64,000 bases of DNA, from assembly GCF_988243305.1 (NCBI RefSeq), contig NZ_OZ547136.1. One strand, written 5' to 3'. A program made the position numbers and the translations under genes. Positions 16,527 through 36,881 of this stretch are shown in pieces (position 1 is the stretch's first letter; every line of letters begins with the position of its first letter). A model generated the notes under the pieces. The model saw only the letters and a list, made by a program, of their open reading frames with translations. It was not told where the DNA came from and made no database searches.

Positions 16527-17645
16527 ATGGCCCGCTATTATTTTTCGTGCCCCAAAATTTATTTTGGTGAAGAGGCAATAACCTCTCTATGCCAATTTAA
16601 TAATAAACGAGTCGGTATTGTCACCGATGATTTTATGATGTCATCAGGTAAAACTCGTTATTTAATAAGCCATATGCCTGAGGCATCGGTATGCATTTTC
16701 GGCGAGGTTACTCCGGATCCAGATATTGATATTCTGACTTCCGGCGCGGCGCGTTTTAAAGCCTTTAAGCCCGACGTTATTATCGCCCTCGGCGGCGGCT
16801 CGTCGCTGGACGCTGCGAAAGGAATTAAAGTCACATTGGAAGAGTATTTTGGAGATCATCAAATCGATCTCATTGCTATTCCCACAACCAGCGGATCCGG
16901 CTCTGAAGTGACGTCCTACGCGATCATCTCTGATCCGCAAAATGGCCGCAAATATCCGTTGATCTCCGGGCAACTGGTGCCGGAAATCGCTATTCTCGAT
17001 CCTAACCTAGTGTTAACCGCGCCGCGTCATGTCGCGGTAGATACCGGCATGGACGTGCTGACCCATGCCATTGAAGCCTTTGTCTCTACTGGCTCAAATG
17101 ACTTTAGCGATGCGCTGGCGGAAAAAGCCATCGCGTTGACCTGGCGCTATCTGCCGCAGGTGTTTAACGACGAAAAAGACATTGCGGCGCGCACCCACAT
17201 GCACAATGCCTCCTGTATGGCAGGCATGGCATTTAACTCCGCCGGGCTGGGGTTGGTACACGGCATGGCACACGCCATCGGCGGGATGCTGCATATTCCT
17301 CATGGCAAAATTAACGCCATGCTGCTGCCGATTGTCATCGACTTCAACAGCAAACGGGCCAGCACTGAAACCCGCGATCGCTATCACCGTTGCGCGCAAA
17401 TCATAGGCATTGACCATGCGGTACCGGAGCAGGCCATCGCGCTGATGACTCAGGAGATCCGCCAGATCAATCGCCATTTCTGCATCCCCGTCACTCTCAG
17501 CGAACTGGGCATCGACCGTGCAAAAATCATCGAGTTGCGCAGCGCACTGGTGAATTCGACGCTGGCCGACGGTTGTACCGCGTCGAACCCGCGGCAGGTG
17601 ACGACGCATGATGTCGAAGGGTTGATCGACCTGATTACCGGCTAG
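16527..17645 (+). CDS. Iron-containing alcohol dehydrogenase (PduQ/EutG-like) of GRM locus
   Basis: 372-aa ORF with GGGSSLDAAK motif and metal-binding His cluster; first gene of microcompartment operon. Confidence 0.85.
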   Translation: MARYYFSCPKIYFGEEAITSLCQFNNKRVGIVTDDFMMSSGKTRYLISHMPEASVCIFGEVTPDPDIDILTSGAARFKAFKPDVIIALGGGSSLDAAKGIKVTLEEYFGDHQIDLIAIPTTSGSGSEVTSYAIISDPQNGRKYPLISGQLVPEIAILDPNLVLTAPRHVAVDTGMDVLTHAIEAFVSTGSNDFSDALAEKAIALTWRYLPQVFNDEKDIAARTHMHNASCMAGMAFNSAGLGLVHGMAHAIGGMLHIPHGKINAMLLPIVIDFNSKRASTETRDRYHRCAQIIGIDHAVPEQAIALMTQEIRQINRHFCIPVTLSELGIDRAKIIELRSALVNSTLADGCTASNPRQVTTHDVEGLIDLITG

Positions 17646-17784
17646 CTGGATAACTTTGTTCAGCCTCCGTGAAGCAGTCAAAAAAGTCCTGCTGATAAAC
17701 AAAAACCGGGCGTCGTTACTCCCTATCCTGATCGTTAGACGCCCATTACCCATAAGATAACCCAATAATCAGGTCGTACCCATT

Positions 17785-18471
17785 ATGAATTACACCGAAC
17801 AACAAGCCGAGTGGATTACCCAACAAATTTTGCAGGAACTTGCCACCAGTGAAAAAACGGCAGCGCCTGCTGCCGCGCCCGTCGCGCTGAATATTCCGGT
17901 GGGCGTGTCCAACCGCCATGTTCATCTGTGCCGTGAAGATATGGACATTCTGTTTGGCTACGGCTCTACGCTAACCCGTTCTAAAGCGTTGAAACAGCCC
18001 GGTCAGTATGCCGCCGAAGAGATGGTGACGCTGCGCGGGCCAAAAGGCGAGCTCAACAAAGTGCGCGTGTTAGGGCCACTGCGTAATGCCACGCAGGTGG
18101 AAATCTCTGTGGCCGACGGCTTTGCGCTGGGCACTAAAGCTCCGGTGCGCATGTCGGGGGATCTGCTGGATTCGCCGGGCATTGAAATCATCGGTCCGAA
18201 AGGGCGGGTGGTGAAACACAACGGCATGATTGTCGCCTGGCGCCATATCCATATCTCGCCCGAAGAAGCCGAACTGCACGGCCTGCATGACGGAATGGAA
18301 ATCGATGTGCAAACAAACGGTCCGCGCGGTGGTGTGCTCAGCCATGTAGTGGTACGCGTCACGGCGGATGCAGTGCTGGAACTGCATATTGATATGGAAG
18401 AAGCTAACGGCGTCGGTCTGCGTAATGGCGATACCGTTCGCGGCATAAAACAGGCTGCGCGCCATGGCTAA
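17785..18471 (+). CDS. pduL: Phosphotransacylase PduL family
   Basis: 228-aa ORF with PduL signature VSNRHVHL and duplicated PTAC-type domains. Confidence 0.8.
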   Translation: MNYTEQQAEWITQQILQELATSEKTAAPAAAPVALNIPVGVSNRHVHLCREDMDILFGYGSTLTRSKALKQPGQYAAEEMVTLRGPKGELNKVRVLGPLRNATQVEISVADGFALGTKAPVRMSGDLLDSPGIEIIGPKGRVVKHNGMIVAWRHIHISPEEAELHGLHDGMEIDVQTNGPRGGVLSHVVVRVTADAVLELHIDMEEANGVGLRNGDTVRGIKQAARHG

Positions 18472-19284
18472 CAGCCCCGAAAACTGCCGATTTCACGAAT
18501 TGGCCGCGCTGATTGACAGCGGCGAATGTCGGCCCTACTCCGGCGCGTTGAAGGTGGGGGGGATCTCGGTACCGCCAATATCGCAATCGTGGTGCTGGAT
18601 GAAGATAACCAGCCGGTGGCAGGGGTAATGTATCCCTCCAATGTGGTGAAAGACGGCGTGGTGGTGGATTACCTGACCGCCAGCCGGGTAGTAGCACGTC
18701 TCAAACAAATTCTTGAACAGAAACAGGGCTGCACGCTGGAGCGCGCGGCGATCGCAGTCCCACCGGGGATCTCTGAAGGCAACACAAAAGTGATCGTCAA
18801 CGTAGTGGAGTTGGCGGGTTTTATCGTGACCCAAGTACTAGATGAACCGGTAGCCGCTGCCAGCGCGCTGAATATTAAAAACGGGGCGGTGGTGGATGTC
18901 GGAGGAGGCACCACCGGCATGAGCATTTTGAAAAGCGGTAAAGTGACGTTCAGTGCCGATGAGCCCACCGGTGGAAGCCATATGAAGTTGGTGATCGCTG
19001 GCGCGCTGGGCTTGCCTTATGCCGAGGCGGAAGAAATGAAAAAAAACGGGCAGGAAGCGCAGGTCTTTACCCTGGTGCTACCGGTGGCCCAGAAAATGGC
19101 CAGCTTGGTGTCGGGATGGTTCGCTACCCAGCAGGTAAAAAATATTTATTTGGTAGGTGGCGCGAGCAGCTTCAGCCAGTTTGCCAACGTGTTCAGTAAA
19201 CAAACCGGTAAAAATGTGATTCCTTCGGCAGAGCCACTATTGGTCACACCATTAGGCATCGCCATGAATGCGGACCAGGGGTAA
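18465..19284 (+). CDS. EutJ-like actin-fold ATPase/chaperone, apparent frameshift in a G7 homopolymer
   Basis: ORF from 18526 matches EutJ (DLGTANIAIVV, DIGGGTTG); the N-terminal ~30 aa lie in another frame starting at ATG 18465; frames meet at GGGGGGG 18554-18560. Confidence 0.65.
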
Positions 19285-19288
19285 ATCA

Positions 19289-35078: not shown

Positions 35079-35134
35079 GCCCACTTGTCAGGTTCCTATC
35101 CTAAGATAGGAATAAACTTCCCAAACAAGTGGGC
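35079..35134 (+). promoter_or_regulatory. Nested inverted repeat immediately upstream of the MetK-paralog start codon (candidate RNA structure or operator)
   Basis: Outer stem GCCCACTTGT/ACAAGTGGGC enclosing inner palindrome TTCCTATC-ctaa-GATAGGAA; ends 6 nt before the TTG start; no SD visible. Confidence 0.35.
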
Positions 35135-35139
35135 TCGCT

Positions 35140-36291
35140 TTGAACGATTACCTGTTTACCTCCGAATCCGTTGCCGAAGGGCATCCCGATAAAATGGCGG
35201 ACCAAATTTCTGATGCCATTTTGGATGCGATACTCCTACAGGACCCGTGGGGTAAGGTTGCCTGTGAATGCTTGGTGAAAACTGGTGCCACTATTGTTGC
35301 CGGAGAAATATCTACCCATGCCGCCGTGGATATTGAGAAGATTGTCCGCAACACCATAAAAGAGATTGGTTACGACCATTCGCGATTGGGGTTTGATGGC
35401 AATACCTGCTGTGTATTAAATATCCTTGGCAAACAGTCCGCCAATATTGCTGACGGCATTCGCGGCCACTCGATGGAAGAACTGGGGGCGGGCGATCAGG
35501 GCATCACCTTCGGTTACGCCTGTGATGAAACGTCGGAACTGATGCCCGCCACGCTGGTATACGCCCATCGTCTGATGGAGCGCCAGGCGCAGTTGCGTAA
35601 ATCCCAACGGTTACCATTTTTACTCCCTGATGCCAAAAGCCAGGTTACCCTGCGCTATCAGGATAATCGTGTTCATTCAGTAGATACCGTTGTGGTGTCT
35701 ACCCAACACAGCCCTGACGTTTCTCTGGACGCGCTACGGGAAGCGGTCATCGAAGAAATTGTTAAACCTGTGATGCCTTCGCACTGGCTCACGCCACAAA
35801 CCCGCTTTCTGGTGAACCCTGCAGGCAGTTTTGTGATTGGCGGGCCGGTGGGTGACTGCGGGCTAACGGGGCGTAAAATTATTGTTGATACCTATGGCGG
35901 CGCGGCTTGCCATGGCGGCGGCGCGTTTTCAGGCAAAGATCCGTCGAAAGTCGATCGTTCCGCCGCCTACGCTGCTCGCTATGTGGCGAAAAACATCGTC
36001 GCCGCTGGGCTTGCCTCACGCTGTGAAGTCCAGTTGGGATGGGCCATCGGCCTGCCCCGCCCTGTTTCCGTCAGGATTAACACCTTCGGTACACAAACAG
36101 TGTCATCTGAAGCGTTGCTGAGAGGCGTTAACAGCCATTTCGATCTTAGCGTGTTCGGCATCATTACTACGCTTGATCTGCTGGTCCCCCGCTATCGTAA
36201 AACAGCCTGCTATGGTCACTTTGGTCGCGACAGCTTTCCGTGGGAAGTTACGGACAAAGCGGCGCTATTATACGAAGACGTTGGACGTTAA
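35140..36291 (+). CDS. metK: S-adenosylmethionine synthetase (MetK paralog embedded in GRM locus)
   Basis: 383-aa ORF with MetK motifs [23 protein letters not shown] start inferred from alignment to MetK N-terminus; diverges from E. coli MetK as recalled. Confidence 0.85.
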
Positions 36292-36335
36292 GCCGACGAC
36301 GCGCAGCACAGTTGAATTTATTACAGGAGAAATTT

Positions 36336-36881
36336 ATGTCTGGGAAAAGTTTAGGCTTAATCGAAACCGTCGGGATGTCTGCGGCGGTAGAAGCCGCCGA
36401 TGCCGCAATGAAATCCGCTAACGTTAGTCTGGTAGGCTATGAATTGACGAAAGGCGGCGGGATGGTGACCGTGAAGCTGGAAGGGGAAGTGGGCGCAATT
36501 AACGCGGCGGTAGCGGCAGCCATCAGCGCGGCAAGCCGGGTTGGCGAGGTGTATGCCCATAAGGTGATCGCCCGCACCGCGCAGCATATCGAGCAGATTA
36601 TTCACTCTAAAGTGACCGCCGGCGTCGCAGAACCTCAACCTGAAGTGCCTGCTGCACAACCGACACTGCAGGCTGAAAACGCGCCTTCACAGACATTCCC
36701 GGTGGTTAACCTTGATACGTCAATCAGCGCATCCTGTATGGATGTCACTGATGAAACGCTGAAGTCCATGGAGCAGCATCAACCGGTTAAACCCTCAATA
36801 GAAAACACTAAACCTACAAAATCTGATGTACCGCAGGAGGCAGCAAAGAAAGGTCCTCGTTCCAGCGGCAAGAAAAAATAA
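36336..36881 (+). CDS. BMC-H shell protein with long low-complexity C-terminal extension
   Basis: Start at ATG 36336 with RBS ACAGGAGA; BMC domain (MSGKSLGLIETVGMSAAVEAAD) then ~90-aa Pro/Ser/Lys-rich tail. Confidence 0.8.
   Translation: MSGKSLGLIETVGMSAAVEAADAAMKSANVSLVGYELTKGGGMVTVKLEGEVGAINAAVAAAISAASRVGEVYAHKVIARTAQHIEQIIHSKVTAGVAEPQPEVPAAQPTLQAENAPSQTFPVVNLDTSISASCMDVTDETLKSMEQHQPVKPSIENTKPTKSDVPQEAAKKGPRSSGKKK

Follow-up and report, generated by a model that had tools for sequence, protein, structure and literature searches.

The Escherichia coli grp cluster: a GRM3-type microcompartment locus predicted to ferment 1,2-propanediol without vitamin B12

Here we describe a cluster of 19 genes, grpA to grpS, at positions 16527 to 36881 of a stretch of 64,000 nucleotides from contig NZ_OZ547136.1 (assembly GCF_988243305.1), the whole of which is called the window below. 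We identify it, with a probability of about 0.95, as the known Escherichia coli grp (glycyl radical propanediol) cluster, which encodes a bacterial microcompartment (BMC) of the glycyl-radical-enzyme microcompartment (GRM) type GRM3 for vitamin-B12-independent fermentation of 1,2-propanediol. The locus is already known: RefSeq names every gene, a near-identical locus of strain CFT073 has been characterised genetically, and homologs with 75-90% identity have been characterised biochemically and structurally. The finding adds no new biology.

Identity and integrity of the locus

Position 16527 is the start of grpA and 36881 the stop of grpS; between them all grp reading frames form an unbroken co-oriented series on the + strand, and 19 of 19, grpH included, are intact. 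A megablast search with window positions 16000-37500 against 5,426 complete E. coli genomes gave, among the matches listed, full-length ones at 100.0% identity, and in identical E. coli genomes the PGAP labels run from grpA to grpS as 'propanediol utilization system ...'. The products were scanned against NCBIfam and Pfam with the curated cut-offs applied, and the domain assignments are all above them (Table 1). A literature search on 'grpM' retrieved no paper with this gene name.

An earlier note on the same DNA had listed most of these products, from the shell proteins and PduL to a glycyl radical enzyme (GRE) with an RVAGYSA loop and its activase, and a PocR-sensor histidine kinase with an AraC-type response regulator. 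Every gene in that list is present and intact on the + strand between 16527 and 36881, and the domain scans agree with the calls for the GRE (GrpM), its activase (GrpN), the kinase (GrpP) and the response regulator (GrpQ). The list was incomplete, as GrpD, GrpF, GrpR and a group II intron were absent from it, and its 'acetate kinase' was right in family only, the best call for GrpG being propionate kinase, whose equivalog cut-off it passes.

The counterpart of the cluster in CFT073 (NC_004431.1, 4306029-4326385; c-numbered genes including c4545 for grpP and c4546 for grpQ) agrees with it in all 19 genes, their order and their orientation, and shares with it the intron that lies between grpO and grpP as well as the debris of the right flank. 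Window positions 14383-41258 are 99.55% identical to CFT073 DNA over 26.9 kb. Ten of the 18 comparable Grp proteins are identical in the two strains, seven have one residue changed and GrpJ has two; grpH was left out of this comparison because the CFT073 copy is frameshifted. Relative to CFT073, the window has an extra ~3.4 kb on the left flank, with a NERD/UvrD helicase gene and an IS3 (insertion sequence 3) remnant, and an extra segment of ~7.6 kb on the right side. A further difference concerns grpH itself, which is intact in the window, whereas the CFT073 RefSeq record, at positions 21812-22095 of L004, contains two 1-bp insertions and annotates the gene as frameshifted. These insertions are probably errors of the 2002 assembly, since grpH is reportedly required, by the abstract of Lundin et al., for growth on 1,2-propanediol.

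In 2020 Lundin et al. are said to have grown CFT073 anaerobically on 1,2-propanediol, seen its microcompartments by electron microscopy, deleted all 19 genes individually and found the pathway in more than 10% of ECOR strains. In the papers that cite this work, the CFT073 cluster appears as 21 co-oriented genes for a glycyl radical diol dehydratase, five shell proteins and the enzymes that form propionate and 1-propanol from 1,2-propanediol (Lundin et al. 2020, as cited in PMC13210347), and as a microcompartment for 1,2-propanediol fermentation under the control of GrpP/GrpQ (Lundin et al. 2020, as cited in PMC11724981 and PMC13210347). The number 21 is explained by the group II intron, which adds two extra 'genes' to the 19.

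We consider it improbable that the locus is a decaying, non-functional remnant in the source strain. Such decay is what one might read from the flanking pseudogenes (a DNA-binding protein, an RND pump and IS elements), from the group II intron that separates grpO from grpP and has a broken reverse transcriptase, and from the frameshifted grpH of the CFT073 record. However, no grp frame of the window is interrupted, the intron is intergenic and lies downstream of a terminator, and the same intron is found in CFT073, where the locus is functional. In addition, hundreds of genomes encode almost invariant Grp proteins, and this speaks for purifying selection.

Substrate of the glycyl radical enzyme

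When GrpM was compared with solved structures in the PDB, the top match was the Raoultella planticola GRM3 propanediol dehydratase (9RCO-9RCR; 90.5% identity over 787 aligned residues), an enzyme crystallised with 1,2-propanediol resolved in its active site (PMC12756279). It is followed by the Clostridium butyricum glycerol dehydratase 1R8W (59% identity) and then by the Roseburia inulinivorans diol dehydratase 5I2A. Over residues 1-586, GrpM and 1R8W align without gaps, and therefore the 1R8W residue numbering applies directly to GrpM. The GCVEP motif occupies GrpM residues 432-436 and the RVAGYSA loop residues 821-827; the active-site residues are His164, Ser282, Phe339, Cys433, Glu435, Asp447, Tyr702, Val704 and Gly825, and at all nine positions checked the R. 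planticola enzyme has the identical residue. Phe339 and Val704 are aligned with Tyr339 and Ser642 of glycerol dehydratase, and the same Phe and Val stand at these two positions in both propanediol dehydratases, 5I2A and 9RCO. This pair reportedly has a role in selectivity, being said by LaMattina et al. 2016 to exclude the C3 hydroxyl of glycerol.

GrpM scores below the curated equivalog cut-offs for CutC, HypD, sulfopropanediol dehydratase and PFL; for the CutC model TIGR04394 it reaches 555 bits against a cut-off of 1050. Activity on 1,2-propanediol has been demonstrated for the homologs from Rhodopseudomonas palustris GRM3 and R. inulinivorans (PMC5311937, PMC12756279). We regard the question of substrate type as settled in favour of 1,2-propanediol, GrpM itself being a predicted 1,2-propanediol dehydratase. 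The earlier note had leaned to a 1,2-propanediol rather than a choline (CutC) type, and had proposed an alignment of the GRE to characterised GREs as a check; the identity to the R. planticola enzyme, the Phe339/Val704 pair and the CutC score bear this preference out, as the alignment gives propanediol-type residues and the CutC and PFL models are not matched.

There is very little room for GrpM being a B12-independent glycerol dehydratase, with a compartment that handles glycerol through 3-hydroxypropionaldehyde, even though 1R8W is its second-best solved relative, aligned gap-free up to residue 586 and sharing Cys433, Glu435, His164, Ser282 and Asp447. At the two positions that differ, Phe339 and Val704 in place of Tyr339 and Ser642, GrpM sides with the two propanediol dehydratases. 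Glycerol yielded no product with the R. palustris GRM3 enzyme (PMC5311937), and the R. planticola enzyme was very weakly protected by 1.5 M glycerol and showed no glycerol in its active site (PMC12756279). Finally, glycerol dehydratase has no internal insert and no association with a microcompartment (PMC5311937), whereas GrpM has an insert of 63 residues.

Shell, cargo targeting and predicted pathway

This insert, GrpM residues 587-649 (DNA ~27691-27879), has no counterpart in 1R8W and is absent from the 9RCO construct. It holds two helix-like stretches, EQDIYDVVKRIIEHH and DPAAIKNEVYRQL, between low-complexity linkers. An internal insertion of ~60 residues is typical of the propanediol dehydratases of GRM3, GRM4 and GRM5 (Ferlez et al. 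2019, PMC6325248), and an intramolecular peptide has been reported for GRM3 enzymes (PMC5311937); the authors of 9RCO cut 'the encapsulation peptide' out of the crystallised construct for better solubility (PMC12756279), while GrpM retains the segment. We take the insert as a putative encapsulation peptide that matches the internal GRM3 type. GrpM aligns with glycerol dehydratase from residue 1 and has no N-terminal extension. In the aldehyde dehydrogenase GrpJ an N-terminal extension of ~60 residues is present, in agreement with the encapsulation-peptide-like N-terminus described earlier for this protein.

The composition of the locus is that of a GRM as delimited by Ferlez et al. 2019 (PMC6325248): the GRE matches PF01228 and PF02901, the activase PF04055, and the shell proteins PF00936 (GrpH, GrpI, GrpK and GrpS) and PF03319 (GrpE). 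These are the five shell proteins of the earlier note, with GrpE as BMC-P, GrpH and GrpS as the two BMC-H proteins, GrpI as the PduB-type BMC-T (NF011944) and GrpK as the permuted one. The partial PF00936 match of GrpK fits the permutation, and the protein can be placed more narrowly than as PduU/EutS-like. The best solved relative of GrpK is 4OLP, 'GrpU microcompartment shell protein' (E=1.4e-48, ~81% identity), and the motif GSCPQH is found at its residues 67-72. GrpU, for which an Fe-S cluster has been proposed, is a shell protein defined by the pore motif G-X-C-P-Q-N/H (PMC6325248). GrpK is a GrpU-type shell protein, with a predicted Fe-S cluster in the pore.

The ancillary set of GRM3 given by Axen et al. 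2014 consists of an acetate-family kinase, a peptidase, a flavoprotein, a homolog of EutJ, an S-adenosylmethionine (SAM) synthetase, a two-component pair and a DUF336 protein (PMC4207490). It is complete here, as GrpG, GrpL, GrpD, GrpC, GrpR, GrpP/GrpQ and GrpF, respectively, all past their family cut-offs, which upholds the GRM3-like content noticed earlier. The best PDB matches of GrpJ (5JFL/5JFN, aldehyde dehydrogenase) and GrpB (5CUO, PduL) are likewise R. palustris GRM3 proteins. Neither PduS nor PduT was found among the 19 grp products in the NCBIfam and Pfam scans, and from their absence together with the presence of GrpU we infer that the locus may follow the GRM3b pattern of Ferlez et al. 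2019 (PMC6325248).

A fucose/rhamnose microcompartment of the GRM5 type, in which fuculose- or rhamnulose-phosphate is taken in and 1,2-propanediol is made inside the shell, is hardly to be expected on these grounds. The R. inulinivorans GRM5 enzyme 5I2A does align with GrpM over its full length, insert included, and GrpA is distantly related to lactaldehyde reductase (TIGR02638). Yet GrpA is well under the cut-off of that family (272 vs 523 bits), and none of the 19 grp products is a class II aldolase by the NCBIfam and Pfam scans. PduS and PduT are encoded in all GRM5 loci and neither in grp, a GrpU homolog is encoded in grp and in no GRM5 locus, and the ferredoxin-like insertion of GrpN is lacking from GRM5 activases (PMC6325248). 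Deoxy-sugars could instead supply the grp pathway in an indirect way, by the 1,2-propanediol that the chromosomal fuc and rha pathways excrete, as follows from established E. coli physiology.

A choline-utilisation microcompartment (GRM1/GRM2, cut cluster), with choline trimethylamine-lyase as its GRE, is the least credible, as GrpM has His164 at the position that we take, by an alignment offset of our own, to be that of CutC Asp216. This Asp is listed as essential (PMC4453576), and although CutC structures are significant GrpM homologs (e.g. 5FAU, E=4e-140), a Phe of GrpM is aligned with the essential CutC Phe395 (an offset inferred from the Cys and Glu positions) and cut-type GRM2 is known in some E. 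coli strains (PMC6325248), GrpM reaches about half of the CutC cut-off, is 90.5% identical to a propanediol dehydratase and has neither the short GRM1 N-terminal peptide nor the GRM2 extension of ~350 residues (PMC6325248), and grp encodes a PduB-type BMC-T, which GRM2 loci lack (PMC4207490).

For the grp microcompartment as a 1,2-propanediol system, the following mechanism is proposed. The radical-SAM activase GrpN, with its extra Fe-S clusters, would use SAM, possibly supplied by the dedicated MetK paralog GrpR, to form a glycyl radical on Gly825 of GrpM. The radical would move from Gly825 to Cys433, which would abstract a hydrogen from C1 of 1,2-propanediol, and with Glu435 and His164 acting as base and acid, water would be eliminated to give propionaldehyde. 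This toxic aldehyde would be confined by a shell of GrpH and GrpS hexamers, the PduB-type trimer GrpI, GrpK and the vertex pentamer GrpE. Within the shell, GrpJ would convert the aldehyde with NAD+ to propionyl-CoA, and GrpA would convert a second aldehyde to 1-propanol, recycling the NAD+. GrpB would then transform propionyl-CoA to propionyl-phosphate, with CoA recycled, and GrpG would yield propionate and ATP. Cargo could be targeted by amphipathic helices, namely the internal two-helix insert of GrpM and the N-terminal helices of GrpJ and GrpB.

The PocR-domain kinase GrpP and the AraC-type regulator GrpQ would turn the locus on upon 1,2-propanediol; in CFT073, as a citing paper summarises it, they are needed for expression of the 1,2-propanediol degradation genes (Lundin et al. 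2020, as cited in PMC11724981). The roles of GrpC, GrpD, GrpF, GrpK, GrpL, GrpO and GrpR are inferred. The grpO product has no Pfam or NCBIfam match even at E<=10, and it might be a diol channel or transporter of a new class. Ethylene glycol might be a further substrate of the compartment.

The R. palustris BisB18 GRM3 (Zarzycki et al. 2017, PMC5311937) resembles grp in pathway logic and core enzymes, and its GRE has the same internal two-helix insert. It comes from a different phylum-level host, its sequence identity to the E. coli proteins is moderate, and the R. palustris and R. planticola enzymes are 75% identical (PMC5311937). In contrast to R. palustris BisB18, the E. coli locus has the GrpU-type shell protein and no PduS or PduT. 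The Salmonella pdu system has in common with grp the substrate, the toxic intermediate, the downstream enzymes (PduP-, PduQ-, PduL- and PduW-like), a PduB-type shell protein and PocR-type sensing. However, the signature enzyme is a GRE with its activase in grp and the B12-dependent PduCDE in Salmonella; grp has no cobalamin recycling genes, is regulated by a two-component system rather than by the one-component PocR, and, unlike pdu, encodes a strictly anaerobic pathway.

Several points weigh against our interpretation of the locus. Its function and its expression in the source strain of the window are predicted from the sequence. The residue numbering that separates glycerol from propanediol selectivity is the one said to be given by LaMattina et al. 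2016 and O'Brien et al. 2004, the alignment alone being computed in this study. The results of Lundin et al. 2020 are drawn from papers that cite them and from their reported abstract. The R. planticola homolog also binds ethylene glycol (PMC12756279), and therefore 1,2-propanediol may not be the sole substrate. Finally, a response of GrpP/GrpQ to D-serine and an activation of type 1 fimbriae by them were reported (PMC11724981), and thus they do more than control the propanediol pathway. The sequence itself holds nothing contrary to our interpretation.

Group II intron, island context and distribution

A terminator-like stem-loop followed by a T-run lies at 30566-30600, 3' of grpO, and six bases past the T-run begins, with GTGCG, a group II intron whose boundaries (Table 1) were set by comparison with other E. 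coli copies. Rfam detects group II intron domains above gathering thresholds (RF02001, 135 bits; RF01998, 74 bits; RF00029, 50 bits) at 30713-30882, 30917-31001 and 32339-32410. The reverse transcriptase/maturase frame (31039-32316; RVT_1 and GIIM) is broken by in-frame stops at 31576 and 32125, and part of the reverse transcriptase domain is missing by an apparent internal deletion, so the intron is probably immobile. Related copies with 94-96% identity and an intact ltrA are found on plasmids and in IS110-family elements. When the joined grpO and grpP flanks were used as a query against the 5,426 genomes, both flanks were present in 540 (10%) and an uninterrupted grpO-grpP junction, that is, an empty site, in none, and therefore the intron is fixed in the E. 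coli grp locus, CFT073 included. It might now belong to the transcriptional or RNA-level architecture that parts the enzyme and shell genes from the unit of the regulators, the SAM synthetase and grpS. We consider this reading, with such a role of the intron, a new transporter class for GrpO and ethylene glycol as a second substrate, to be unlikely.

Of the 5,426 genomes, 456 (8.4%) contain the full locus, counted as at least 80% of 21.5 kb in a single piece. Strain AR_0114 matches window positions 1-41880 almost exactly and diverges after ~41880; there the island adjoins tRNA-Phe (L005, 1525-1600) with an integrase. In CFT073 the grp module lies ~32 kb from tRNA-Sec (L006, 19309-19403) and an integrase. 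Thus one grp module of ~27 kb resides, depending on the strain, in islands at two different tRNA genes, and the window is part of a mosaic island. Horizontal acquisition, suggested by the earlier note, is well supported by this patchy distribution, in 456 to 540 genomes, and by the two insertion sites. The bounds suggested there fared unequally. The debris of an RND pump and IS2 on the right is confirmed, and together with an AraC fragment and a TetR regulator it is common to the window and CFT073. The IS3 remnant on the left is present, 2.1 kb from grpA, but it is not a conserved boundary, because it is absent at that place in CFT073, the alignment with which starts at window position 14383.

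The GC content of grpL, grpP and grpQ (25309-25884, 32677-35011) is 0.425-0.432, vs 0.50-0.57 in most other grp genes, and this unevenness hints at a mosaic origin of the cluster.

Table 1. Annotated features of the grp cluster and its flanks in the window (scores in bits; the value after 'vs' is the curated cut-off)
Feature	Coordinates	Strand	Evidence
grpA, iron-containing alcohol dehydrogenase (propionaldehyde to 1-propanol, NAD+ regeneration)	16527-17645	+	PF00465 and PF25137; identical to CFT073 protein
grpB, PduL-type phosphotransacylase, N-terminal amphipathic helix and Ala/Pro linker	17785-18471	+	NF011652 257 bits vs 209; PF06130; one substitution vs CFT073 protein
grpC, EutJ-family actin/Hsp70-fold protein	18526-19284	+	TIGR02529 384 bits vs 152
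grpD, flavoprotein-domain protein, PduM-like C-terminus	19268-19993	+	PF02441 27.3 bits vs 22.7; weak matches to TIGR02536, PduM
grpE, BMC-P pentameric vertex protein	20005-20274	+	PF03319 104 bits
grpF, HbpS-like/DUF336 (PduO C-terminal type) protein	20302-20799	+	PF03928 103 bits
grpG, propionate/acetate kinase (ATP-yielding step)	20828-22024	+	NF009045 propionate kinase 694 bits vs 580; PF00871
grpH, BMC-H hexameric shell protein, intact	22309-22590	+	PF00936 108 bits
grpI, PduB-type tandem-domain BMC-T shell protein	22612-23397	+	NF011944 423 bits vs 173; TIGR04501 391 vs 310
grpJ, CoA-acylating propionaldehyde dehydrogenase, two-helix N-terminal encapsulation-peptide-like extension (residues ~3-17, 36-48)	23458-24975	+	NF011927 732 bits vs 403
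grpK, GrpU-type permuted BMC-H shell protein, predicted Fe-S cluster site	24999-25298	+	PDB 4OLP; pore motif GSCPQH; partial PF00936
grpL, DJ-1/PfpI family protein (GRM3 'peptidase')	25309-25884	+	TIGR01382 153 bits vs 139; PF01965
grpM, glycyl radical enzyme	25933-28485	+	PF02901 822 bits; PF01228 120 bits
grpN, radical-SAM activating enzyme, ferredoxin-like di-cluster insertion (residues ~56-106)	28594-29511	+	TIGR02494 416 bits vs 174; PF04055 67 bits; Fer4 families
grpO, multi-pass membrane protein, PGAP name permease	29648-30553	+	hydropathy segments
Decayed group II intron, 1.8 kb	30606-32411	+	Rfam, RVT_1 and GIIM
grpP, sensor histidine kinase, N-terminal PocR sensory domain	32677-33939	+	PF10114 152 bits; PF06580; PF02518; one substitution vs CFT073 c4545
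grpQ, response regulator, AraC-type DNA-binding domain	33956-35011	+	receiver and AraC-type matches; identical to CFT073 GrpQ
grpR, MetK-type S-adenosylmethionine synthetase paralog, full-length, TTG start	35140-36291	+	TIGR01034 588 bits vs 309; three S-AdoMet_synt domains
grpS, BMC-H shell protein, C-terminal extension of ~100 residues	36336-36881	+	PF00936 80 bits at residues 5-80 of 181
IS3-family transposase C-terminal remnant, internal stop	14123-14383	-	translation; PGAP 'integrase core domain' pseudogene
AraC helix-turn-helix (HTH) fragment	37238-37435	-	Pfam
TetR regulator	37554-38225	-	Pfam
Truncated RND permease pseudogene	38325-39470	-	Pfam
IS2-like orfA remnant	39573-39839	+	~95% identical to IS2

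The cargo next to the grp module differs between islands, with Shango and IbrAB in that of the window and Qat and a SLATT-domain gene pair in CFT073. At the island start (464-6288, + strand) a TerB-N protein, an ATPase and a DEAD/DEAH helicase match the PADLOC models SngA, SngB and SngC (334, 620 and 923 bits), and this segment is a predicted anti-phage defence system of the Shango type. An IbrA/IbrB-type pair at 7737-9592 (- strand) consists of an IbrB-like (ParB-like) gene beside a phosphoadenosine-phosphosulfate-reductase-family gene, the latter with weak PADLOC matches (BrxP, DndC). The NERD and UvrD helicase protein at 12235-14022 (- strand), which CFT073 lacks at that place, scores 462 bits with the PADLOC candidate defence family C3a187. 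To the right, a low-GC segment (43158-47495) encodes an HTH-PfkB protein, a nucleoside transporter, an indigoidine-synthase-A-like glycosidase and a PfkB kinase; this pseudouridine-utilisation-like cluster is missing at that position in CFT073 and AR_0114. RNA-OUT, the IS10 antisense RNA, at 59643-59712 (- strand; Rfam 99.5 bits) indicates an IS10-derived remnant.

For the genome scan from which it came, the finding is a positive control, in that a 19-gene organelle locus and its subtype were correctly read from raw sequence. For the biology of the organism, the locus gives roughly a tenth of E. coli strains, for the most part extraintestinal pathogens, ATP from 1,2-propanediol without vitamin B12. 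1,2-Propanediol arises in the gut when fucose and rhamnose are fermented, and the grp two-component system has been linked to bladder invasion in published work.

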